Positions 2,357 through 34,677 of a stretch of DNA of 64,000 bases are shown piece after piece. Source of the stretch: Polyangiales bacterium (GTDB lineage: Bacteria > Myxococcota_A > Polyangia > Polyangiales > Ga0077539); assembly GCA_044229975.1 (NCBI GenBank), contig JBGARZ010000017.1, forward strand, positions 64,001 to 128,000. The letters are read 5' to 3'. A program made the translations under genes and the position numbers. Every line of letters begins with the position of its first letter. Position 1 is the stretch's first letter. The notes under the pieces are model-generated. The model ran no database searches and was not told the DNA's origin. It was given only the letters and a program-made list of their open reading frames with translations.

Positions 2357-3739
2357 CTACGGGGCGCCGCGGTCCTTCGGCGAGGTGCGACCGTACTCGT
2401 GGAGGCGGTACTGGATCGTACGGATGCTGAGGTCCAGCATCTCGGCGGCCTTCGCGGTGGAGCCGCCCACGGCGTCGAGCGTCGTCTCGATGGCGTGGCG
2501 CTCGATCTGCGCCATCGTCGACCCGGGGATCTGCACCCCCTGCCGACCCGCGACCGCCACCTGGATGGGGAGGTCGTCCTCGTCGATGAGTTCGCCCTCG
2601 GCGAGCACCACGGCGCGCTCGACGGCGTTCTCCAGCTCCCGCACGTTGCCCGGCCAGCGGTGCGACAGGAGCCTCGCCACGGCCCGGTCGGTGAAGCCCT
2701 CGATGGCCTTGCCGTTGTCGCCCGCGAAGCGCGCCAGGAAGTGCCGCGCCAGCGTGAGGATGTCGTTGTCGCGCGCCCGCAGCGGCGGCATCTCCACGTG
2801 CACCACGTTGAGGCGGTAGTAGAGGTCCTCGCGGAAGCGCCGGGCCTCGACCTCCGCGGGCAGGTCGCGGTTGGTGGCCGCGATGAGGCGCACGTCCACC
2901 TTCACGCTCTCGTTGCCGCCCACGCGCTCGAAGGTGCGCTCTTGCAGCACCCGCAAGAGCTTCACCTGGATGGCCATCGGGATCTCCCCGATCTCGTCGA
3001 GGAAGAGCGTCCCGCCGTGGGCCTGCTCGAAGCGCCCCACGCGCCGCCGGTCGGCGCCGGTGAAGCTCCCGCGCTCGTGGCCGAAGAGCTCGCTCTCCAG
3101 CAGCGTCTCGGCGAGCGCCGCGCAGTGCAGCGTCACGAAGGGTTTGCCCGCCCGTGGGCCGCGCGCGTGGATGGCCCGCGCCAGCTCCCCCTTGCCGGTG
3201 CCGCTCTCTCCCGTGATGAGCACCGTCGCCCGCGCCGGGGCGACCTGTGCGGCCACCTTGTAGACCTTCTGCATCGCGGGAGAGGCACCGATGAGGCCCT
3301 CCAGGCCCCGGGCGTCGCGCTCGCTGAGCTGCCGCCGCAGCTGGCTCGCCTCGGCGCGAACGTCGCGGTGCTCGATGGCGCGGTCGACGGCGACCTGGAG
3401 CTCGTCAAAATCGACGGGCTTCATCAGGTAGTGCTCGGCGCCCTGCCGCATCGCCGCGACGGCGGAGGCCACGTCGTGCGAGGCCGTCACCATGATCACC
3501 GGGAGGTCGGGGTACTGCGCGCGCAGCTTGCCCAGCAGCTCGATGCCGTCCATGCGGGGCATCTTCAGGTCGGTGACGACCACGTCGGGACAGGTCTCGG
3601 CGGCGCGCTCCAGCGCTGCCACGCCGTCGGCCGCGGTCTCGACCTCATAGCCCTCCAGGCGAAGCAGCTTTTCCAGCCCCGAGCGCGCCGCCTCCTCGTC
3701 GTCGACCACCAGAACCCTGATCTTCGATTTGCCGCTCAA
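2357..3739 (-). CDS. NtrC-family sigma54-dependent response regulator (REC-AAA+-HTH)
   Basis: VLVVDDE..DLKMP receiver; [30 protein letters not shown]-terminal HTH. TTG start at 3739 follows GGAGG. Confidence 0.93.
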
Positions 3740-5179: not shown

Positions 5180-6808
5180 ATGGCCGACCCGCCCGCCGAG
5201 ACCCTGTTCGGGGAGATGAAGCGCTACGTGCGCTTTTCGGACGACGACGCCCGCGCGCTGGCCGCCTTCGGCGAGGTCGCTGCGCCCCACTTCGAGCGCA
5301 TCGCGGCGGAGTTCTACGAGCGGGTGCGCGAGCACGAGGAGGCGCACGCGGTCTTCACCGGCGAGGCGCAGATCGAGCGGCTGCGGCGCACCCTGGTGCG
5401 CTGGATGGAGCGGCTCTGCTCCGGCCCCCACGACGAGGGCTACTACGCCGAGCGGGCTCGCATCGGTCGGGTCCATGTTCGCATCGGGCTCCCGCAGCGG
5501 TACATGTTCACGGCCATGGCGCTGATGCGCGGCGCCTTCGAGCACCTGGCCGAGGGGATGGCCGCGGGGGAGGCGACGGCAGCCCGCACGGCGCTCTCGC
5601 GGGTGCTCGACCTGGAGCTCGCCATCATGCTGGAGACCTACCGCGAGGACTATGTTGAGCGCCTCCAGCGCACCGCGCGGCAGGAGAACGACCGCCTGCG
5701 CGGCGAGCTCGCGCGCAGCGAGCACCGGGCCGCGAGCGCGGTCGCGTTCGCCCGGGTGATGGTGGTGGGGACGGACGCCGCGGGCGTGATCGTGCTCTTC
5801 AACCACGAGGCCGAACGGGTCACCGGCTACGCCGCGGACGAGGCGCTGGGCCGGGCCTTCGTCGACCTGCTCGTGCCCGAGTCGCTGCGCGACGGCGACG
5901 GCGACGACGCGCGCTTCCTGCGGGCCGCCGCGGGCTCCTCGTCGACCCCCGAGGTCTGGGATGCGCCGGTCCGGGTGCGCTCGGGTCGCGAACGACTGGT
6001 GCGTTGGCTCCTCTCGCCGGTGCCGCCCACGCCCGACGACACGGCCACGCTCTACGCCGTCGGCCGCGACGTTACGGACGAGAACGTCTTGTGGGAGCGG
6101 ACGCGCCAGAGTGAGCGCCTCGCCGCGGTGGGCACGCTCGCGGCGGGCCTCGCGCACGAGATCCGCAACCCCCTCAACGGCGCGCTGCTGCACGTCACCT
6201 ACCTGGAGCGCGCCCTGCGGCGCTCGGACGGCACCCCTGACGCCCTGGAGGCGGCGCGCTTCATCGGCGTCGAGATCCAGCGGCTGTCAGCGCTGGTGCG
6301 GGACTTCCTCGTCTTCGCGCGCCCCGCCCCGCCCGACCGCCGGGCCCGCTCGCTGCCGGAGGTCTGCCGGCGCGCGGCCGCGTTGGTGACCGGGGACGCC
6401 GAGCGTGCGAAGGCCGCCATCGCCCTCGACCTGCCCGCCGCCGACCTCATGGTCCAGATCGACGCCGACAAGATCGAGCAGGTGCTGCTGAACCTCCTGC
6501 GCAACGCCCTCGACGCCGTCGGCGGCGCGGGCGGCGGCCGGGTCACGCTGCGGGCGCGCCGGGAGCCGCGCCAGGCCCTCGTCGAGGTCGAGGACGACGG
6601 GCCGGGGCTCCCCTCGCCCGACGCGCCCATCTTCGACGCGTTCTACACGACCCGTCCGCAGGGCACCGGCCTCGGGCTCGCCATCGTGCACCGCGCGGTG
6701 AGCGACCACGGCGGGACCGTCGAGGTCGAGAGCCGCATGGGGCGCACCGTGTTCCGGGTGCACCTGCCGCTGGGGGGTGGAGCGACAGAGTCACCGGCGG
6801 CGCCCTGA
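5180..6808 (+). CDS. Protoglobin-PAS sensor histidine kinase (globin-coupled, likely O2 sensing)
   Basis: Globin FYE..GRVHVRIGL..LDLELAIMLETY; PAS FNHEAERVTGY; H-box AHEIRNPL; N-box NLLRNA; DDGPG and GTGLGL boxes. Confidence 0.9.
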   Translation: MADPPAETLFGEMKRYVRFSDDDARALAAFGEVAAPHFERIAAEFYERVREHEEAHAVFTGEAQIERLRRTLVRWMERLCSGPHDEGYYAERARIGRVHVRIGLPQRYMFTAMALMRGAFEHLAEGMAAGEATAARTALSRVLDLELAIMLETYREDYVERLQRTARQENDRLRGELARSEHRAASAVAFARVMVVGTDAAGVIVLFNHEAERVTGYAADEALGRAFVDLLVPESLRDGDGDDARFLRAAAGSSSTPEVWDAPVRVRSGRERLVRWLLSPVPPTPDDTATLYAVGRDVTDENVLWERTRQSERLAAVGTLAAGLAHEIRNPLNGALLHVTYLERALRRSDGTPDALEAARFIGVEIQRLSALVRDFLVFARPAPPDRRARSLPEVCRRAAALVTGDAERAKAAIALDLPAADLMVQIDADKIEQVLLNLLRNALDAVGGAGGGRVTLRARREPRQALVEVEDDGPGLPSPDAPIFDAFYTTRPQGTGLGLAIVHRAVSDHGGTVEVESRMGRTVFRVHLPLGGGATESPAAP

Positions 6809-7483
6809 TCAGGCGTCCGCGAAGCGGGGCCGGAGCACGTGGTTCTCCAGGTGGACGTGCGTGAAGACGTCGCGCTCGACCTGTGCGAGCTCGGAGAGGA
6901 GCGTGCGGTAGCTGTTGCACGCCCAGGCGGGCGGCGCGAACCCGTCGGCCGCGGCGTGAACCCTCTCCAGCAGCCCCGCCACCGCCAGGTGCTCGCCCTG
7001 CATCGCGGCGAGCCCCTCGGCCACCTCCGCCCGGTCGGTCCGCCTCGCGGTGAGCGCGGGGAAGAGGGTAGCCTCCTCGTCGTCGAGGTGAACCAGCAGC
7101 GCGGCGGAGAGCGCTTCCACCCCGGCCTTCAGTTCGCGGAGCTTCGGGTTGCGGTCGCCGTGGACTCGGCTCACCTTGGCAGCGAGGGCGCTGGCGAAGG
7201 GCAGCGCCCGGCGGAGGTACTCATGGTGCTTCGCGACGATGTGCGCGACGAGCCGCGGGGTGGAGAGCGTGCGCGGGTCGACCTGCGAGTCGCCGCGGCG
7301 CTCCGCGATGGCCGCGGACAGCTCCGCGACGAGGGCGTCGACGGCGAGGCCCCTCCCCTCCGCCGCTGCCTCGACGCTGATGTCACCGCGGCAGCAGAAG
7401 TCGATGCGGTTGCGCTGGAAGACCTCGGCGCACTCCGAGTGGTCGAGGACGAGGGAGGCGACGGTCTGTTGGCGATCGAGCAT
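6809..7483 (-). CDS. ric: Iron-sulfur cluster repair di-iron protein (Ric/YtfE/ScdA)
   Basis: IDFCCRG, HHEYLR, HLDDEE, ACNSYR, HVHLENHVL. Confidence 0.92.
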   Translation of the reverse strand: MLDRQQTVASLVLDHSECAEVFQRNRIDFCCRGDISVEAAAEGRGLAVDALVAELSAAIAERRGDSQVDPRTLSTPRLVAHIVAKHHEYLRRALPFASALAAKVSRVHGDRNPKLRELKAGVEALSAALLVHLDDEEATLFPALTARRTDRAEVAEGLAAMQGEHLAVAGLLERVHAAADGFAPPAWACNSYRTLLSELAQVERDVFTHVHLENHVLRPRFADA

Positions 7484-7513
7484 GGTCAGGAACTCCTTCC
7501 AGCGGCGATACCC

Positions 7514-7529
7514 AGCAGCGGTCGTACCA
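7514..7529 (-). promoter_or_regulatory. sigma54 promoter of ric
   Basis: Minus strand TGGTACGACCGCTGCT. Confidence 0.65.
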
Positions 7530-7571
7530 ACGCAGCAACCCCGGTCCCGACCCGCGGCGGGCGGCGCCCCG

Positions 7572-7607
7572 GCGAAGGTCTTGCGCCGGCCGGCGCAGAC
7601 CCTGCGT
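7572..7607. promoter_or_regulatory. Tandem GCGCA-N5-TGCGC-like sites upstream of ric
   Basis: GCGAAggtctTGCGC (7572) and GCGCAgacccTGCGT (7593), 21 bp apart. Confidence 0.6.
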
Positions 7608-7972
7608 CAGCAGCGGTCGTGGGGGTTGGGGAAGGCGTCGTCGTCGCTCTCGCCGCTGCGGGTCTTCAGGCAGGCGAAGTCCTTCTCGACGAGCACCCGC
7701 AGCGACGCTCCTTCCCCCACCGGCTGCGACCCCTCGATGGCCACACGGTCGGTCTCGCACCACTCCCGCGCGACGACCTCGGGGACGGTGACCACCACGC
7801 GCGCGCCGTCGAGCCGCGCCGACAGCGCGTCACCCAGCTCCAGCGCGTACGACAGCCGGGCGTCCGCGCCGAAGCGCACCGCCTCCTCAACGCGGCCGTC
7901 GCGCCCGAAGGCCTCCACCTCGCTGCGCGTCAGCCGCAGCCGCAACGAGTCTCCGCGCATCCTCAGCTTCAT
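7607..7972 (-). CDS. Conserved hypothetical protein
   Basis: MKLRMRGDSLRLRL...LVEKDFACL...DAFPNP; its ATG overlaps the mobA stop. Confidence 0.75.
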   Translation of the reverse strand: MKLRMRGDSLRLRLTRSEVEAFGRDGRVEEAVRFGADARLSYALELGDALSARLDGARVVVTVPEVVAREWCETDRVAIEGSQPVGEGASLRVLVEKDFACLKTRSGESDDDAFPNPHDRC

Positions 7973-8535
7973 CGTCGCTCCATGTCCTCGGGCGTGTCCC
8001 AGTCGTCGAGCAGCCGCTGCTCGCCCAGCGAGAGCGGCAGCTCCGCGGCGCCGAGCGCGTCGAGCAGCCCTTGTGTCGAGCGCGCCCCGGCCTCCAGACG
8101 GCTCAGCGCCGTGGGGAGCGCGCGCGGGGCGTCATAGCGGGCGAACATCGGCTCCCAACGCCCGCCGCGCCGGGCGGCCACGGCGGGGCCCGGGGCGTCG
8201 GCCGCGAGGAGGGCGCCGAGCAGCGCGCGCGTGACGAAGGGCATGTCGCAGCCGAGGGCGACGCACCGGCCCCCACCGGCCCGGCGGAGCAGCGCCACGA
8301 GCCCTCCCAGCGGGCCGACGCCGGCGGGTTCGTCGTCGAGGGTCTCCACGCCGAGGTGCGCGTACTCGGGACGCCGGCCGACCAGCACGCAGGGGACCGA
8401 GAGCGCCACGCAGTGCCCCCGCAGCCCCTCGACCAGCGCCGCCCCGGTGGGCCCCGGAAGGAGCCCCTTCGGGCGGCCGCCGAAGCGGACAGAGGCGCCG
8501 CCGACGAAGATCCCTGCGACGACCGCGTGCGTCAT
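7969..8535 (-). CDS. mobA: Molybdenum cofactor guanylyltransferase
   Basis: GGASVRFGGRPKGLL, GPLGGL, GCDMPF, EPMFARY, DTPED; ATG 8535 overlaps the upstream stop. Confidence 0.82.
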   Translation of the reverse strand: MTHAVVAGIFVGGASVRFGGRPKGLLPGPTGAALVEGLRGHCVALSVPCVLVGRRPEYAHLGVETLDDEPAGVGPLGGLVALLRRAGGGRCVALGCDMPFVTRALLGALLAADAPGPAVAARRGGRWEPMFARYDAPRALPTALSRLEAGARSTQGLLDALGAAELPLSLGEQRLLDDWDTPEDMERR

Positions 8536-9572
8536 CGCTCGCGCCACGCCTTCGGGAGGTTCGTCGCCATGCCCGCGAAGGCGAGGGCCCAGGCCGCCAG
8601 GGCGACGAACACGAAGGCCCTGGGGATGGCGAAGAGGAAGGGCGCGTCCACGGCGCGGGAGAGCCGGGCCGTCGCCGCGGTGTACATCCCGAGCGGGAAG
8701 ACTGCGCCCCAATAGAGCGCGTCGTAACGCAGCGGGAAGCGCTTGTAGACGTGCCGCCACGCGCCCAGCACGAGCAGCATCGGGATCCACCAGGTGGCCG
8801 TCGACCACCACAGGAGCGTGAAGCCGCGCACGAAGGGAAGCACCTGCGTGAGCACGGGCGAGTGCGCCGCCGCCGCGACCAGCGACGCGCCTGCGAGGGT
8901 GGTGATGGCCGCGGCGCCCATGTTGACCCAGTAGGGCGGCGCGAGGTCGGAGGGCGCGAGGGTAAAGAAGGTGTAGCGGTAGAAGATGAGCGCGATGATC
9001 CAGAGGTAGAGCATCGCGCCGCCGAGCCACATCGCGAGGCAGAAGAAGAGCGCCTCGGCCCGGTGCGACGCGAAGCCTGGCGCGAGCTGCGCGCCGAGGG
9101 CGGCCACCGACTGCGCCGCGACGACGGAGACGAGCCAGCCACCGTTGATGCCCTCGGCGAGCGAGGGCTTCTCGGGCTTCACCGTGAGGAGCGCGAACAC
9201 CCCGTAGGTGAGCGCCGCCCAGAGCGCGATGCCAAACCCCCAGAGGGCCGCCGCGGCGCGCGGGGCGTCGCCCACCAGGAGGCACTGCGAGCCCAGCACG
9301 GAGGTGGCCGCGACGGCGGTGAAGAAGCCCACCGAGCGGCCGTGGTGCAGCAGGTCGGCGACCACGCGGTCGCGGTGGAGGGCCACGCGCGCCAGGGTGA
9401 GCGCCCACACCGCGGGGTAGAGGGCGAGGTTGAGCGCGAAGAGGGCGGCGGCGAGGGTGCGGTAGCCGACGAGGTGCGACGCGACGGAGACGATGCCCGT
9501 GGCCATCACGAGCGCGAACTGCGCCGGGTGCATGGTCGCGAGGGACCCGGAGGGTGCGTCGCGGGCCGTCAT
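8532..9572 (-). CDS. TDT/SLAC1-family anion channel (tellurite resistance/C4-dicarboxylate type)
   Basis: FALVMATGIVS, PPYWVNMGAAAITTLAG, YWGAVFPLGMY; about 10 hydrophobic segments. Confidence 0.88.
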   Translation of the reverse strand: MTARDAPSGSLATMHPAQFALVMATGIVSVASHLVGYRTLAAALFALNLALYPAVWALTLARVALHRDRVVADLLHHGRSVGFFTAVAATSVLGSQCLLVGDAPRAAAALWGFGIALWAALTYGVFALLTVKPEKPSLAEGINGGWLVSVVAAQSVAALGAQLAPGFASHRAEALFFCLAMWLGGAMLYLWIIALIFYRYTFFTLAPSDLAPPYWVNMGAAAITTLAGASLVAAAAHSPVLTQVLPFVRGFTLLWWSTATWWIPMLLVLGAWRHVYKRFPLRYDALYWGAVFPLGMYTAATARLSRAVDAPFLFAIPRAFVFVALAAWALAFAGMATNLPKAWRER

Positions 9573-9793
9573 CCCAGCGAGTCGAGGTGGCGGAGCAGGC
9601 CGAGGTTGAGCAGCAGGCACGCGAGGCTCGCGGCCAGCGCCGGCCACACGACCGCGGCGTCGCCGCCGAGCCAGGCGTTCATCGTGGCGGTGAGCAGCCA
9701 GAGCTGCAGCACCACGAGCGTCAGCACGAAGCAGAGCACCCCGTAAACGACGGTGGTGCGCTGGGCCCGGGTGAGGTGCCGCTTCAGCCCCAA
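9569..9793 (-). CDS. Small two-TM membrane protein (DUF6755-like)
   Basis: LQLWLLTATMNAWLGG motif; tightly coupled between the Rieske and TDT genes. Confidence 0.7.
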   Translation of the reverse strand: MGLKRHLTRAQRTTVVYGVLCFVLTLVVLQLWLLTATMNAWLGGDAAVVWPALAASLACLLLNLGLLRHLDSLG

Positions 9794-9794
9794 G

Positions 9795-10448
9795 TCACAC
9801 CGTCCTCGCGGTGACGCCCACGGCGTACACGTCGTCGCCCACGACCTCGAGCTCGACCTTCGGCAGCGGGCGCGGGGGCGGCCCGGCGACGTTGCGCCCC
9901 GTGCGCAGGTCGAAGTATCCGTGGTGGCAGGGGCAGACCAGCGTCCCCCCGGCGAAGTCGGGCACCACCGCGCAGGACAGGTGTGTGCACGCCTGGCTGA
10001 AGGCCACCACCGTCTCAGCGTCCGGGCGCAGCAGCAGGCACGCGTCGTGGTCGCCCGGGTAGTGGAACATCTTCGCGGTCCCCACGGGCACCTCGCCCAG
10101 CGACGCGACCTTCACCCGCGGCGGCGCGCGGCGGGCGCGCACGAGGTGCTGCCCGGCGATCCACGCCTGCCCAACCACGAAGGCCCCGCTGGTGAGCACC
10201 AGGAACTTCGCGAGGTCGCGCCGCGCCACGTACTGGTCCTGCGGCCAGTCGATGGGGAAGTCCTGGCGCCACCGGGGCTGCTCGCCCATCGGGCGCCCGT
10301 CGGGGGCGACCGTAACGTCGTCGGGGTCGCGCGTGGGGGCGTACACGTCCGAGCGCGCGGTGCCCGTGAGCCCCTCGCGGCCGGGCGAGTCGACGCGGGG
10401 GTCGAGCGCCCGGTCCTGCTCGAAGCGGCGCTGCGGGTCGTCAGGCAC
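9795..10448 (-). CDS. Membrane-anchored Rieske [2Fe-2S] protein
   Basis: CTHLSC and CPCHHG boxes, GPPPRPL; ARRDLAKFL twin-Arg-like motif before a hydrophobic helix. Confidence 0.9.
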   Translation of the reverse strand: MPDDPQRRFEQDRALDPRVDSPGREGLTGTARSDVYAPTRDPDDVTVAPDGRPMGEQPRWRQDFPIDWPQDQYVARRDLAKFLVLTSGAFVVGQAWIAGQHLVRARRAPPRVKVASLGEVPVGTAKMFHYPGDHDACLLLRPDAETVVAFSQACTHLSCAVVPDFAGGTLVCPCHHGYFDLRTGRNVAGPPPRPLPKVELEVVGDDVYAVGVTARTV

Positions 10449-10451
10449 GGC

Positions 10452-11111
10452 TCACACCTCCACGTCGGCGAAGGGGTCGGCGCTGTCGGCGCCCAGCACC
10501 GGGAGGCGCACCGTCCGCGGGCGGGCGTGCTCGTCCATGGCGGCGACCACGTCCACGATCACGTCGCGCGCGGCGCCCTTCGGGGCCATCACGTTCACCC
10601 GGGTGGTGATGGTCTGGTCGCCGAAGCGGAAGCGGTTGACCGGCGTGGACTGCGGGCGCAGCGCCAGCACCTGCTCGCGCGTCCCGAAGAAGAGCGCCTG
10701 GCTCGGGCAGACCGTCGCGCACATGGGCCGCTTGCCCGCCGAGGAGCGGTCGTAGCACATGTCGCACTTCATCATGATCTGCCGGTCGAGGTAGAGCTCG
10801 GGCACCCCGAAGGGGCACGCCACCACGCAGTTGCCGCACGCGATGCACCGCGGCTTGCGGGCGCTCTGCACCACCCCGTCGGCGGTGCGCTTGATGGCGT
10901 CGGCGGGGCAAACCTCCGCGCAGGTCGGCTGCTCGCAGTGCATGCAGACCACGGGCACCGTCTGCACGGAGCTCGCGCGATCGACGTACTCCAGGTGGAT
11001 CATCGATTCGCCGCGGTGGGTGTCGCACTCGCTGCACGCCTGCACGCAGGCCTGGCATCCGATGCAGCGGCTCGGGTCGATGAAGAACTCCAGGTGGGCG
11101 GGCACGGGCAT
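10452..11111 (-). CDS. Four-cluster [4Fe-4S] electron transfer subunit (DmsB/NrfC-like)
   Basis: CIGCQAC..C, CMHC....C...CP, CIACGNC...CP, CDMC...C...CP. Confidence 0.92.
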
Positions 11112-11124
11112 GGGGCGTCTCCGG

Positions 11125-13392
11125 TCACTGCTGGGATTCGTGGGTGGCGGCGTAGGCGGGCGGCCCGGCGGCCTTGCGCACGCGGCAGCCGCAGACCTTG
11201 TACTGGGGGATCTTGCTGATCGGGTCCTGGGCGGCGACGGTGAGCCGGTTGGCGCTCTTCTCGCCGGGCCAGTGGTAGGGGACGAACACCGTGTCGGGGC
11301 GGATGGTGGTGACCACCATCGCGCGGAGGGTGACCTCGCCGCGGCGGGTCTCGCAGGTGGTCCAGTCGCCGTCGGCGATGCCGAGCTTGTCGGCGAGGCG
11401 CGGGTGCAGCTCGATGCAGGGCTCGGGGTACTGCTTCACCAGCGGGCCAATGCGCCGCGTCTGCGTGCCCGACAGGAACTGGCTCACCACCCGGCCCGTC
11501 GTGAGGAACAGCGGGTACTCCTCGGAGGCGTCGTCGACCGGGGCGCGGTAGTCGGCCACGTTGAAGCGCGCGCGCCCGTCGGGGAAGTAGAAGGGCCCCG
11601 TGCCCTTGGCGACGGGGTTGTAGCTCCCGGGCTCAAAGAGCCTCGGGGTGCCCGGGTGCTCGGGCGTCGGCGCGCCGGTCTGCGGGTCGTGGCTGTAGCA
11701 GGGCCAGAACACGCCCATCTGTCGCTCGATCTTCTCGTAGGTGATGCCCGAGTAGTCGGCGACGCCGCCCTTGCTGGCCACCCGCAGCTCCTCAAAGATC
11801 TCCCCCGCGCTCGCGAAGGTGAACCCGTGCGGGCGCTCGAGGGCGCGGGCGAGATCCTGGATGATCTCCCAGTCGCGCTTCGCCTCGCCTGGGCACTCGA
11901 CGGCCCGGTTGATCTTGATGACCCGCCCCTCGACCTGGGTGACCGTGCCCTCGTCCTCCTCCTGGAGGCTCCCCGGCAGGACGAGGTTGGCGTGGCGGGC
12001 CGAGTCGTTGAGGAAGAAGTCGATCGCCACGTAGAACTCGAGCTTCTCCAGCGCGCGCGCGATGAACCCGTTGTCGGGCAGCGAGATCTTGGGGTTGAAG
12101 CAGATCGATATCAGCCCCTTGATCTCCCCCGCGTCGATCTTCCGGAACATCTCGTAGGCGTCGACGCCGGGCCCCGGGATGGACGCCTCCTCGACGCCCC
12201 ACACCGACGCGACGTACTTGCGGTGCTCGGGGTTGGAGATGTCGCGCCAGCCCGGGAGCTGGTCGCACTTCTGCCCGTGCTCGCGCCCCCCCTGCCCGTT
12301 GGCCTGGCCGACGATGGTGCCGTAGCCGCACTTGGGCTTGCCGATGCGCCCAGAGGCCAGCACGAGGTTGATGCTCCCGAGGGAGTTCTGCACCCCGTTG
12401 GAGTGGTGCTCGATGCCGCGCGCGTGGAAGAGGAAGCTCGACTTCGCCGTCCCCCACAGCTCCGCCGCGGCGCGGAGCGAGCGCTCGGGAACGCCCGTCA
12501 CCTCCGCGGTGCGCGCGGGCGTCCACTGCGCGCAGTACTCCTCCACCTTGTCGAAGCCGACGGTGTGGGCGTCGATGAAGTCCCGGTCGATCCACCCCCT
12601 CTCGATCATCAGGTGGAGCACGCCCGCGAAGAGCGCGGCGTCGCGCCCGGGGCGCACTGGGAGGTAGAGGTCGCAGGTGCGCGCGACGGGGGTGATGCGC
12701 GGGTCCTGCACAATGACCTTCGCGCCCATCTCGCGGGCCTGCCAGATGTAGTTGGTGGTGATGGGCGAACACTCGGCGACGTTCGACCCGGCGACCCAGA
12801 TCACCTCCGTGCCGACCATGTCCGACCAGGGGTTGGTGGTGCGGTCGACGCCGAAGGCCTTCTTGTTGGCGGCCCCCGCGCTCACCATGCAGAGCCGCCC
12901 ATTGTAGTCGATGAAGGGGGTCTTCAAGCACACGCGCGCGAACTTGCCGAGGAGGTAGGTCTTCTCGGTGGTGAGGCTCGCCCCCCCGAGTACGCCCACG
13001 GCGCCCGGGCCGTGCTCCTTCTGGAGCCGCCCGATCTCGCGCGCGGCGAGCGCGATGGCCTCGGCATACGGCATCGGGCGAAACCCGCCGGACGCCGAGG
13101 GGTCGCGCCGCACGGCAGTGAGCAGCCGGTCGGGGTGCGAGCCCTGGAGGTAGCGCTTGACCCCTTTGGGGCAGAGCATCCCGCGGTTGAAGGGGAACTC
13201 CTCCCAGGGCTCGAAGCCGACGACCTCGTTGCCGCGCACCTTCAACTGGATGCCGCACTGCTGCCCGCAGAAGCAGCAGTGGGTCTTCACCAGCTTGTCG
13301 GGCTCGCCGCTCTCGGGTCCGCGGACGGACGCCGACAGGTGCGGCCCGAAGGCGCGGGTGATCTCGAGGTCGTCGACGGGGAGGGTGGCCAT
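11125..13392 (-). CDS. Mo-bis-PGD oxidoreductase catalytic subunit, Nas/Nap nitrate-reductase-like
   Basis: [13 protein letters not shown] [4Fe-4S] motif; NGRLCMVS (Cys ligand followed by Met); [25 protein letters not shown]. No signal peptide. Confidence 0.88.
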
Positions 13393-13396
13393 GCGG

Positions 13397-14464
13397 CTAA
13401 GGGCTCACTTTCGGTGTGGACCAGAGGGCGCCCTGTGCGAGCCCGAAGAGGGCGCGTCGGCACTTGGGGCAGACCTGCTGGTAGTGCTTCCCCTCGCCGC
13501 GGGCCGTGAGCTCGTAGCGGAACCCGAGCTCGCGCTCGACGGTGACGAGGTCGCGCACCATCGCGGCCGATGCGTACGGGGCGTCGCAGCGCGCGCAGCG
13601 GGCCTGCTCGCTCCGGTTGCCGGCGTCCTTGTAGAAGCTGACCCCCAGCTGCGCGGGGCGCTGGAAGACGTGGAAGAGCTTGCCGAAGGGCAGCCAGAGC
13701 AACGTGAGGATCACTACCGCGGCGTGCAGGATGGCGAGGAAGGGGTACGCGTAGCCGCGCATCCACGTGTAGCTCACGGTGAGCATCAGCCCCGTGACGC
13801 TGACGGCGAGGAGCAGCACCAGAGGGAGGATATCCTCGCCGAACTGCTGCACCGCCGCGGCGCCGTGGTCGATCATGCGCCGGCGGAACGCGAGCATCAC
13901 CCCGACGATGACGAGAAGCGACGACCAGACGAGCCCGTGGAAGAGCACGAACCCGACGAGCGAGCGCACCGGGAACTCCCCCGCGGCGACGCCGAAGACG
14001 AAGGCGCGGTAGGTATCGAGCTGCCCCGGGACGGTCTCGAAATGGATCCAGCCCCAGACGAGCGGGAAGGTGATCGCGGCGGCCAGGAGGCAGCCCCACA
14101 TGATGGCCCAGTGGGCCAGGCCCCGGAGGGATCCGCGCCGGAAGATGAAGCGGTTGGCGGCGAACTCCAGCAGGGCGCGCCGCCCGAGCTCGGCGAGGTT
14201 GGTGCCGAGGAAGCGCGGCGTGAAGAAGACCTGCCACCCGCGGCGCCAGTACATCCGCGTCGGCGGCCGCTGGAGCCACATGGTGTAGCGCCAGGTAATG
14301 CCGAAGGTCGCGAACAGCGTCGCGAAGGTGTAGCCCACCAGCGCGGCGTCGAAGTGCGCGAGGTTGCGCGAACCGAGCACGATAAACGCAGCGAGCGTTG
14401 TGGTGAAGGTCGTCGCCCACGTGAAGGCCTTGAGTCGAGGCTTGTCTCGCGCCACGTCAGCCAC
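13397..14464 (-). CDS. Polytopic membrane protein, NarI/cytochrome b-like, with C-terminal Cys4 motif
   Basis: Several TM helices carrying His ([17 protein letters not shown]), WLPFGKLFH motif, and CARC...CPKC. Confidence 0.7.
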
Positions 14465-14735
14465 CGTGGGTGGTTCTTACAGCCCCTGCCGCCGGGGCGG
14501 AAGCCTCCGCATCGTCGATCCTCGCGGGGTCGCCCGGCGGTCTGCACAGCACCGCGCCCCGCCGCCCGCCGGACGGCAACAGGAATCCCACGCACCCCGG
14601 GCAGACCGCGCAGACCGCGACGAACGTCGTGCCGACGTAGCGATCGCAGTCCACCGTCAGTCGGCGCACCACGGTCCCTTCCACGGTGACCATCTCCTGC
14701 ACCCCGATGTCACGCTCGACGAGGTCCGCCATCAT
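14457..14735 (-). CDS. Small five-cysteine protein, first gene of the Mo-enzyme operon
   Basis: GGAG 8 nt upstream and a sigma54 box; stop overlaps the next GTG; gapless similarity to the N-terminal domain of 34027-34677. Confidence 0.75.
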
Positions 14736-14786
14736 GTTCTTTGCTCCAGCGCGGACCCTGATTGTGGTGCCGCCGAGCAGCCACAG

Positions 14787-14802
14787 AGCAGTCCACGTGC
14801 CA
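14787..14802 (-). promoter_or_regulatory. sigma54 promoter of the Mo-enzyme operon
   Basis: Minus strand TGGCACGTGGACTGCT; 15/16 identical to the box at 16158. Confidence 0.75.
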
Positions 14803-14843: not shown

Positions 14844-15252
14844 ATGCGCCTTGACGGGTTCGTGTCCTTAGAGTCGCGATCCGAGACGAAGCACCGCATC
14901 CTTCTGGTGGAGGACGACGCGGGCACCGCGCGGACGCACTCGCGCCTCCTGGGCGAGGACGGCTACGAGGTGGAGGTCGCCTCCGACAGCGCCGAGGCGT
15001 TGGACCGCCTCGACCGCGCGCCCGCCCCGGACGTCCTCATCTCCGACTTCCTGCTGCCGCACGCCGACGGCCTCGCGGTGGCAAGCCACGCCCGCGCGCG
15101 CCGACCGGCGCTCCCGGTGGTCATGGTCACCAGCTCCGCGGAGGTGCTCGCGCGCCTCGACCGCCGGCTCGATCCCCCCGCGGTGATGCTGGCCAAGCTG
15201 CTCGACTACGCGGCACTGACGCGCGCTCGAAGCGCTGCTCGCGCCGACGTAG
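14844..15252 (+). pseudogene. Single-domain response regulator with 3' frameshift
   Basis: ILLVEDD..DVLISD..DGL..VMVTS. Adding 2 nt in the GCGCGC run near 15221 gives ALEALLAPT* (TAG 15250), abutting the convergent USP stop. Paralog of 33629. Confidence 0.65.
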
Positions 15253-15253
15253 T

Positions 15254-15694
15254 TCAGGCGGAGGGGGCGGGCTGCGGGCGCACGACGAGCGCGCTCCGAT
15301 CGAGGTGGGTGACCACGCGACTCGCGGTGGTGCCGAGCAGGCCGTCGAGCGTGCGGTGGCCGTGGGCGCCGATCACCACCAGCGCCGCGTTCTCGTGGAG
15401 CGCGACGTCGCAGATCACCCGCCACGCCGCGCCGTACTCCACGCGCACCGTGGCGTTGACGTCCGCCGGGAGCAGCGCGCGCAGCCCTTCGAGCTCGGAG
15501 CGGGCGCTGCGCTCGATGAGCTGGGCGACCTGGTCAGGCGCCATGGCGTAGGCCTCCAGCGGCAACTCGGAGGGGATGCCGAGGGCGCGCAGGAGGACGA
15601 GGTCGGCGCTGCGCCAGCGAGCCTCCTCGACGGCCGCGGCGAGCACGGCGGGGGCGATCGGGGTCGAATCCACGGGGACAAGGATCTTCGTCAT
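15254..15694 (-). CDS. Universal stress protein
   Basis: KILVPVD..LVVIGAHG..LLGTTASRV. Confidence 0.9.
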   Translation of the reverse strand: MTKILVPVDSTPIAPAVLAAAVEEARWRSADLVLLRALGIPSELPLEAYAMAPDQVAQLIERSARSELEGLRALLPADVNATVRVEYGAAWRVICDVALHENAALVVIGAHGHRTLDGLLGTTASRVVTHLDRSALVVRPQPAPSA

Positions 15695-33628: not shown

Positions 33629-34030
33629 ATGTCACCCACGCTCGCTCCGACCCGACGAGTCCTGCTCATGGAGGACGACGCCTCCGCGGGGGGCAGGCTC
33701 GCGCAGATGCTGCGCGAGGACGGCTACGAGGTGGAGTTCGTGCCCGACGGGGAGACGGCGATCTCGCGGCTCCGACGCTCCCCGCCCCCGGACGTGCTGG
33801 TGGCCGACTACCGGCTCCCGGGGATCGATGGGCTCGGCGTCGCGGCCTTCGTGCGGGATCGATGGCCGGGCATGCCGGTGATCATGGTCACCAGCTACCC
33901 CGAGGTGATCGAGCGCGTCACCCGTCGCGACGGCACGCCGATGGTCATCCTCGGCAAGCCCCTCACGTATGCGGACCTCGTCCGCGAGCTGGAGCGGGGA
34001 CGCCGCGTCGACCCGACCCCGGGGTCGTGA
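33629..34030 (+). CDS. Single-domain response regulator
   Basis: VLLMEDD, DVLVADYRLPGIDG, IMVTS, KP. Confidence 0.88.
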   Translation: MSPTLAPTRRVLLMEDDASAGGRLAQMLREDGYEVEFVPDGETAISRLRRSPPPDVLVADYRLPGIDGLGVAAFVRDRWPGMPVIMVTSYPEVIERVTRRDGTPMVILGKPLTYADLVRELERGRRVDPTPGS

Positions 34031-34677
34031 CAACGCTCAAGAGTCCGGGCGTCGCCGTGCGCGTCGTGGGGGTGAGGGAGACGCTCTCCGGCGACGGCGC
34101 GGTCCGACGTCACCTGACCGTGTACTGCGAAGACGCGGGCCGGTCGGTCGATGCGATCGCCTGCGCCGACTGCGCCCACTGTGTAGGGAACGAGGGACCG
34201 ACGGTGAACCGCCCGGGCGCCGTGCATTGCCTGCGACTCGACGTCGAGCGCGCGTCCGCCCCACGGGGGTCGGGGCCGAGCCTCCCCGTGTGGTCGGTGA
34301 TGCAGCGCGACGTGGTGTGCGTGACGGCGGACGTCGCCCCCGCGACCGTCACCGCGCTGCTCCGCGCGTGGGGCGCCGACGGCGTCCCCGTCGTGGACGA
34401 GAGCGGTCGTCCGGTTGGGATGGTCTCCCGAACGGACCTCCTGGGCCGACCTCTCCACCGCGGCGAGCTCGCGAATCCGGCAGCGCACCCGCCGGTCCCG
34501 CGGACCGTGGCCGAGGTGATGACTCCCCGGGCGCTCTCGGTCATCGAGACGACCGCGCTGGCCGCCGCCGTCGCGTCCATGTCGGCCGCCGGGTTTCATC
34601 AGCTACCGGTCGTCCTGGCGGACGGCACCATCGTGGGTGTCCTCTCGACGCGCGCGGTGGTCCGTCGGGTGAGATGA
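34027..34677 (+). CDS. Five-cysteine domain + CBS pair protein
   Basis: GTG overlaps the regulator stop; C-x11-CxxCxxC-x15-C, then CBS motifs (GVPVVD..GMVSRTDL; HQLPVV..VGVLS). Confidence 0.82.
   Translation: MTTLKSPGVAVRVVGVRETLSGDGAVRRHLTVYCEDAGRSVDAIACADCAHCVGNEGPTVNRPGAVHCLRLDVERASAPRGSGPSLPVWSVMQRDVVCVTADVAPATVTALLRAWGADGVPVVDESGRPVGMVSRTDLLGRPLHRGELANPAAHPPVPRTVAEVMTPRALSVIETTALAAAVASMSAAGFHQLPVVLADGTIVGVLSTRAVVRRVR

Follow-up and report, generated by a model that had tools for sequence, protein, structure and literature searches.

A small four-cysteine domain, alone and fused to CBS pairs, in a likely low-oxygen gene island of a Polyangiales bacterium

A 92-residue open reading frame (ORF) in a 64,000-nucleotide stretch of a Polyangiales genome (the window, by which that whole stretch is meant) encodes the stand-alone form of a small cysteine domain whose usual place is ahead of a CBS pair. 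The domain family, as yet unnamed, is real and, judging from sequence and gene context, likely to serve as an accessory of a probable low-oxygen regulon and not of the molybdenum (Mo) enzyme encoded behind the ORF; its metal and its activity are predictions. In the explanation that we prefer, and to which we give an even chance, the ORF product is a free-standing copy of a domain of ~58 residues that binds one metal (probably zinc), normally caps the CBS pair of proteins likely to be induced in low oxygen, and would tune or target that pair. An earlier note on this DNA had proposed an unrecognised small cysteine domain, stand-alone and CBS-fused, probably metal-binding and in an oxygen-related setting, and that proposal is supported. 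Of the two metal sites that it offered, Fe-S or Zn, zinc is the one that we prefer, and the sensor role that it proposed is possible.

Table 1. Features of the window referred to in the text, in order of position
Feature	Position	Strand	Remarks
Sigma-54-dependent response regulator (NmpR-like)	2357..3709	(-)	by architecture and position
Protoglobin-PAS histidine kinase (NmpU-like)	5180..6808	(+)	likely oxygen sensor of the island
Membrane protein, first gene of the Mo-enzyme cluster	13397..14464	(-)	start overlaps the stop of the stand-alone ORF by 8 nt
Stand-alone four-cysteine-domain gene	14457..14735	(-)	92 aa; orthologues P0002, P0158
Four-cysteine domain within the stand-alone ORF (aa 8-65)	14541..14714	(-)	invariant C30, C42, C45, C64; variable C48
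GGAG, ribosome-binding-site-like	14744..14747	(-)	8 nt 5' of the first ATG
Sigma-54 (-24/-12) promoter-like site	14787..14802	(-)	67 nt upstream of the ATG of ORF 14457-14735
Single-domain response regulator	14844..15251	(+)	divergent from the stand-alone ORF; frame continues to 15551
Single-domain response regulator	33629..34030	(+)	overlaps the start of the 34027 fusion; exact NmpR-type box at 33701
Domain-CBS fusion protein, 216 aa	34027..34677	(+)	Pfam and AlphaFold2 model
Four-cysteine domain in the 34027 fusion (aa 12-69)	34060..34233	(+)	C34, C46, C49, C68 invariant; C52 variable
CBS pair of the 34027 fusion	34276..34674	(+)	C98 is the Cys typical of the domain-bearing subfamily

The domain family and its partnership with CBS pairs

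The gap-free match between the ORF and the N-terminal part of the CBS protein encoded at 34027, first pointed out in the earlier note, was reproduced with 23 identities over 57-58 residues; its alignment score of 95 compares with 30.0 +/- 4.6 (maximum 56) for 1000 shuffles, and BLASTP gives E 7e-08. The shared motif LTVxC-x11-CAxCxxCVG-x9-GAVxC is exact in residues and spacing and is confined to these two places in the six frames of the window. A 23-row profile search extended the pair to 600 clusters at 50% identity (E <= 0.001), which lie hidden under 'CBS domain-containing' or 'hypothetical' labels as an unnamed domain family. From the 150 clusters listed, 149 domains were aligned, after removal of P0003, a false positive with cereblon-like repeats.

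The family motif is C-x11-C-x2-C-x18-C. The first three ligand positions (C1 to C3) are Cys in 149/149 domains listed and the fourth (C4) in 145/145 of those aligned there, figures that have to be read with the seeding of the profiles, which contain the invariant cysteines and are biased to matches that keep them. Because the profile favours Cys, 14 CBS fusions from a 16-row alignment, most of them first found through their CBS part, were inspected as well; all keep the four cysteines, and six have replaced the middle one. The same pattern is seen in 65 copies taken from genomic loci, where C1 to C3 are conserved in 65, 65 and 65, C4 in all 61 aligned, and the middle Cys in 36. At this middle position, the third Cys of the CxxCxxC string, 91 of the 149 domains have Cys and the others F (17), Y (15), L (10), A (5), W (3) or another residue. 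The five cysteines claimed earlier are present in both copies of the window (at positions 30, 42, 45, 48 and 64 of the 92-residue ORF), but in the family at large only four are conserved.

CBS fusion is the usual form of the domain. A Pfam scan finds CBS in 118 of the 149 domain proteins listed, and many of those that lack a CBS match end inside the start of a CBS domain and may be fragments; in the genomic loci, CBS follows in the same frame in 57 of 65 copies, as it does in 20/20 longer matches. The four-cysteine domain takes the N-terminal position in these fusions. Domain-bearing CBS pairs are mostly of one subfamily, which two residues mark: the first strand of CBS has a Cys in 27/39 domain-bearing frames against 1/29 frames without the domain (this one belongs to a split fusion), and a Trp stands close to the CBS end in 32/39 against 1/29. 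The contrast is confounded by kinship. In the 34027 fusion the second CBS motif has Ala where 85/107 rows of the subfamily have Asp, and the conserved Trp is changed too, so that one nucleotide site may be lost. Some loci depart from the common architecture: in L128, L129 and L141 (genomes G541, G585 and G561, all of one genus) the domain is attached to CBS pairs of another subfamily or shortened, and its gene lies <=0.8 kb upstream of a protoglobin kinase, while in P0152 / P0036 a GGDEF domain is joined to the domain-CBS unit with a Met at the junction, which leaves a true fusion uncertain. P0053, which reads as a fusion to TetR, was discounted as a probable chimera, since in locus L053 a CBS part follows the identical domain sequence.

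The stand-alone forms do not group as a single clade (p-AU 0.0001, from a rough tree of 58 columns with unsettled bootstrap), and that of locus L101 is a split fusion gene. The window ORF, its orthologue in genome G025 and P0158 do form one clade (100/99). As fusions dominate the family, loss of the CBS pair is the likely direction in which the stand-alone ORF arose, on a tree without a firm root.

At least 62 of the 251 genomes of the order (a tally that includes the unpublished genome G493) carry the domain, and so do at least 17 of 401 genomes sampled across the phylum, 13 of which belong to that order; both are lower bounds, 14-23 candidates per genome having been scored. Named relatives are Polyangium, Polyangiaceae and Myxococcaceae/Myxococcales records, by which the order is probably Polyangiales. 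Scanning a genome collection with the whole fusion gave 15 loci; two Polyangium records among them carry the domain, and those from Sorangium and Streptomyces were discarded as matching through CBS only. The same kind of scan with a three-row alignment gave zero confirmed matches. A word-based protein search with the domain alone retrieved the window's own protein only, among 58 candidates, and with alignment A5 it retrieved 9 short and 20 long proteins.

A match to a described Pfam domain would have spoken against novelty; the ORF has none, and matches of its relatives are confined to single members below cut-off, as they are in NCBIfam. These include TRASH, DUF2387, the SprT ribbon and DUF6811/PxxKW (below curated cut-off or at E > 0.005), and two weak zinc-ribbon matches of single members, which are not significant (E 0.013 and 0.074). 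A PDB sequence search yielded nothing significant for the domain; the 34027 fusion matches there through its CBS part, and among the 60 PDB matches listed for the fusion profile none reaches positions below 80. The ESM Atlas contained only unnamed clusters at 0.89 and otherwise no usable match, and no description of the domain was found in a largely open-access literature.

AlphaFold2 predicts a compact beta-rich fold for the domain alone (pLDDT 87.6), with a long hairpin, a short strand, a helical turn that holds the CxxC and a second hairpin leading to the last Cys. The model of the whole 34027 fusion (pLDDT 90.7, pTM 0.85, domain 95-98) suggests a cap packed in a fixed manner on the CBS pair; mutual-information analysis over 107 rows gave no clear contact between domain and CBS. 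Foldseek matched the CBS pair alone when given the whole-fusion model, and the domain model found no PDB match at E <= 0.001 and, in a viral library, only partial overlaps of ~30 residues with small uncharacterised phage proteins (E >= 0.38). A fold comparison with 48,161 chains peaked at Z 2.3, in a size range where small domains score low. In the searches run, the family is thus without a sequence or fold match among solved structures, which does not show that the fold is new.

The stand-alone gene and the Mo-enzyme cluster behind it

ORF 14457-14735 is a real gene, because its GC3 is 0.85, a GGAG motif stands ahead of both candidate ATGs, an orthologue in G025 keeps all five cysteines and the position of the stop, and dN (0.169) is lower than dS (0.444) over 68 codons of the pair, a ratio of ~0.38 that is moderate only. 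P0158 is a third orthologue, and across the three all cysteines, the length and the stop position are preserved. A protein collection already contains the product, as P0159 and without a name. Since the orthologues begin at the second Met, the product may have 91 residues. These observations bear on the view that the stand-alone gene is what remains of a fusion in the course of decay, or that its cysteines form disulfides and hold no metal. Decay would accord with the repeated origin of stand-alone forms, with the split gene of L101 and with the loss, in the clade of the window ORF, of an Arg that 117/149 domains conserve; against it stand the integrity of the three orthologues, the excess of dS over dN and the promoter-like sites ahead of both genomic copies. 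Structural disulfides are disfavoured in a low-oxygen cytoplasm, and no signal peptide is evident. Decay or disulfides are therefore, in our estimation, very unlikely.

The ORF is followed by a cluster of genes (6809-14464, minus strand) encoding a membrane protein without a Pfam match but with C-terminal CxxC pairs, a NasC-like Mo enzyme (below cut-off), a 4Fe-4S protein, a Rieske protein, a TDT-type transporter, MobA, DUF7009 and, at the end, an iron-centre repair protein. The earlier note had treated the ORF as the leader of this operon, and the idea that its product serves the Mo enzyme as a subunit or in maturation has in its favour the 8-nt overlap of the ORF's stop with the next start and the sigma-54-like site ahead of the ORF, which is the only such site (<=2 mismatches) over the 450 nt leading up to the cluster. 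The first gene of the cluster occurs in 23/251 genomes of the order, however, and neither the domain (within flanks of ~0.7-1.5 kb) nor a sigma-54 site at <=1 mismatch stands upstream of any of the 22 other copies. The G025 orthologue of the ORF lies beside different genes, for an acetyl-CoA hydrolase-like protein and a GST. A functional tie to the Mo-enzyme operon finds no support in this comparison, and a role in the Mo enzyme retains next to no probability. Absent from the 22 other clusters, the junction is particular to the window genome, where it would place the Mo-enzyme cluster under the promoter of the island.

The sigma-54-like site, inside 400 nt of the ORF start, has one mismatch to the consensus, and no NmpR-type box at <=2 mismatches was found within 400 nt upstream of the ORF. 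The single-domain response regulators beside the two window copies are paralogues, as had been stated (50% over 111 aa); their arrangement differs, in that the 14844 regulator is divergent from the stand-alone ORF, whereas the one at 33629 is in line with the fusion gene and overlaps its start. The plus-strand frame of the former runs through 14844-15551, past the stop of its paralogue, while another frame stops near 15250; the gene is apparently frameshifted near its 3' end, by a real event or an assembly error.

The low-oxygen context

The window is likely to be a low-oxygen island, a predicted regulon by its gene content: beyond the kinase and the regulator of Table 1 it encodes a cbb3 oxidase cluster, hemerythrins, USPs, CBS and BON proteins and an Acg-family oxidoreductase. 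These genes match the NmpRSTU system of Myxococcus xanthus (PMC11841059), whose protoglobin kinase, sigma-54 regulator, CBS, USP, cbb3 and hemerythrin genes and GCGCA-N5-TGCGC box all have counterparts here. In the excerpts of that account drawn on here, the hypoxia-induced NmpR regulon includes the CBS gene mxan_4236, a USP, cbb3 oxidase and a hemerythrin, its first target is a CBS gene raised 6.5-fold in hypoxia, and 5/10 predicted promoters were bound; the excerpts mention no cysteine domain (PMC11841059). The kinase at 5180-6808 and the regulator at 2357-3709 are likened to NmpU and NmpR only by architecture (the regulator also by position), and the stand-alone ORF shares with the NmpR regulon the sigma-54 site but not the NmpR-type box.

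Promoter-like motifs are enriched both in the window and ahead of the domain elsewhere. The window holds 11 of the 109 sigma-54 sites of the genome at <=1 mismatch, and its 9 exact NmpR-type boxes compare with 0.083 per 10 kb genome-wide (~17-fold). Upstream of 61 domain copies, a sigma-54 site was present at <=1 mismatch in 16 (controls 1.7-1.9%) and at <=2 mismatches in 29 (controls 4-5%), an NmpR-type box at <=1 mismatch in 21 (controls 3-8%), and neither motif in 28. Paired NmpR-type boxes precede the copy on contig C1 of the window genome and those of L080, L081 and L088. For 43 of the 62 domain genomes a kinase position was listed (19 were left out). Domain and protoglobin kinase share a contig in 21 of the 43, lying <=15 kb apart in 15, <=50 kb in 18 and >300 kb in 3, and are on different contigs in 22; related genomes are not independent in these counts. 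Nearness to the kinase and the upstream sigma-54 and NmpR-type sites together indicate a low-oxygen regulon for the domain copies. Many more genomes have the kinase than have the domain (186/251 against at least 62/251), and the domain is therefore an accessory that the NmpU/NmpR-like system does not need. Among the neighbours of the domain within ~+/-5 kb in 20 loci (150 of 168 ORFs scanned, with 16 domain/CBS genes and 2 edge pieces omitted), a USP, a second CBS gene, the kinase, Hsp20 or a cbb3-cluster gene is found in 10 loci and none of these in the other 10, a survey without a background control.

The window genome has four copies of the domain, two of them in the window. The third (G000:C17:52409-53062; L001:8409-9062, plus strand) is a CBS fusion with Arg at the variable Cys position; it has a sigma-54 site and one NmpR-type box upstream, overlaps a gene for a phosphoketolase and faces one for a beta-CASP protein. 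The fourth (G000:C1 ~96650-96900; L127:5650-5901, minus strand) is a divergent stand-alone form that adjoins hemerythrin, AAA_28, beta-CASP and cation-ATPase genes, the same set as near the C17 copy, where L001:13653-17051 (minus strand) joins a lycopene-cyclase-like region and a cation P-type ATPase in one frame that may be two genes. Three close paralogues of the protoglobin kinase are encoded at G000 C17:69180, C15:48039 and C3:13457 (84-88% in the globin part), the C3 copy adjoining a CBS gene, while most other genomes of the order have a single such kinase. In L083 (G328) the domain-CBS gene lies between USPs and a protoglobin kinase on one side and a NiFe hydrogenase cluster on the other. 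The predicted regulon of the window also spans a stressosome-like STAS/kinase/phosphatase set at 72-2349 and DsrE/DsrC-like, rhodanese, ferritin-like and Lon-like protease genes.

Our preferred explanation can be put as a sequence of events. A drop in oxygen would lead the NmpU/NmpR-like system to activate sigma-54 promoters, as it does in M. xanthus according to the excerpted account (PMC11841059); the fusion protein would then be synthesised, its CBS pair reading AMP, ADP or ATP and its Cys4-metal cap acting as a structural or partner-binding module, possibly freed on thiolate oxidation at re-aeration. The stand-alone gene, derived by CBS loss and kept by selection, would act as a cap without nucleotide control, and, in the window genome only, the Mo-enzyme cluster is probably transcribed from its promoter as well. 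The domain would thereby be a candidate metal-dependent component of a myxobacterial low-oxygen regulon.

Metal binding and the closest known systems

A single tetrahedral metal site is the simplest reading, because four invariant cysteines lie in a beta-rich cytoplasmic domain of 58 residues, and on zinc as the predicted metal our judgement is evenly divided. The invariant pattern has only one CxxC pair, and C1 sits in a C-P-x-R-G-x-x-V hairpin, which we take to resemble a zinc-ribbon knuckle minus its second Cys. Irregular spacing with one CxxC is also common in iron-sulphur (Fe-S) proteins, and the earlier note had argued from CxxCxxC for [4Fe-4S]. With the middle Cys in just 91/149 domains, and Arg in its place in the third copy of the window genome, the argument for a ferredoxin-type [4Fe-4S] cluster fails.

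In a broader form, the four invariant cysteines might hold an O2- or NO-labile [2Fe-2S] or [4Fe-4S] cluster, intact only in low oxygen, that switches the CBS protein. The irregular spacing of one CxxC and two distal cysteines, the aromatic residues beside the ligands (F, Y or H precedes C1 in 125/149 domains), the low-oxygen context and, in the window genome, the iron-centre repair gene that closes the downstream cluster are all consistent with this. Yet the ferredoxin-like third Cys is unconserved and no Fer4-type Pfam model matches the domain among 3, 16 or 149 proteins; the 150 neighbours scanned include no Fe-S assembly genes, the cluster of the repair gene lacks the domain elsewhere, and among 149 + 20 proteins no kinase or DNA-binding fusion is well supported (one GGDEF; one TetR, probably chimeric). 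An Fe-S switch is accordingly unlikely in our view. Possible, if doubtful, is a metal-thiolate switch for oxygen or redox state, in a fold unlike solved structures, that would gate the CBS adenylate sensor, perhaps together with the CBS Cys of the subfamily, with the stand-alone copies acting in trans on other proteins; if this were true, a single small protein in the low-oxygen regulon of myxobacteria would read both energy charge and oxygen.

Copper binding, with delivery or buffering of Cu for cbb3 oxidase assembly, draws on the cbb3 cluster inside the window and on fusion genes that adjoin the P-type ATPase or other cbb3 genes in L091, L092, L093 and L095. All four loci belong to the genus of the window, such a neighbour is absent in 16/20 loci, and shared regulation explains the clustering with cbb3, all of which makes a copper role highly improbable.

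The preferred Cys4-metal cap has partial counterparts among described domains. The zinc-ribbon and rubredoxin-knuckle domains (SprT-like, DUF2387, TRASH) are likewise small and beta-rich, with four cysteines and a C-P-x-x-G hairpin, but have two CxxC pairs where this domain has one, and the best fold comparison is the Z of 2.3 given above. All three cysteines of CxxCxxC are conserved in the Fer4 ferredoxin-type motif; the present domain shares the string in 91/149 copies, both window copies included, and differs in the unconserved third Cys, in having no Fer4 match and in the invariant ligands 11 residues before and 18 after the CxxC. C-x-x-C-G knuckles are typical of rubredoxins, and a single iron held as in rubredoxin, serving as a redox switch or electron carrier on the CBS pair, would suit the four cysteines and the knuckle-like hairpin. 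It would also have a parallel in TA0289, which passages of two papers cite as an iron-binding protein with a CBS pair and a C-terminal Zn-ribbon-like domain (PMC2447174, PMC7521041). Against a single iron, there is one CxxC only, the C-x-x-C-G knuckles are unconserved and no redox partner recurs among the neighbours, so that we hold it to be distinctly unlikely.

TA0289 and its family (PDB 1pvm, 2qh1) are nevertheless the closest likeness to the 34027 fusion, both uniting a CBS pair, which the stand-alone ORF lacks, with a small Cys-rich domain, and their CBS parts match. The metal domain is C-terminal in TA0289, as described in those passages, and N-terminal in the four-cysteine fusions; alignment to the fusion profile covers the CBS part only (positions 83-147), and the spacing here is that of the family motif. 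The fusion is thus not a member of the TA0289 family but alike in outline, because the position of the domain and the spacing differ. The CBS pair itself matches Rv2626c and CBSX by sequence and fold, proteins that, among the PDB matches listed, are without an N-terminal cysteine domain. The stand-alone form of ~60 residues is directly assayable for metal and oxygen sensitivity. Since TA0289 already exemplifies the general kind of protein, in which a CBS pair carries a Cys4 metal domain, the family is only moderately surprising, short of a demonstrated redox or Fe-S switch.
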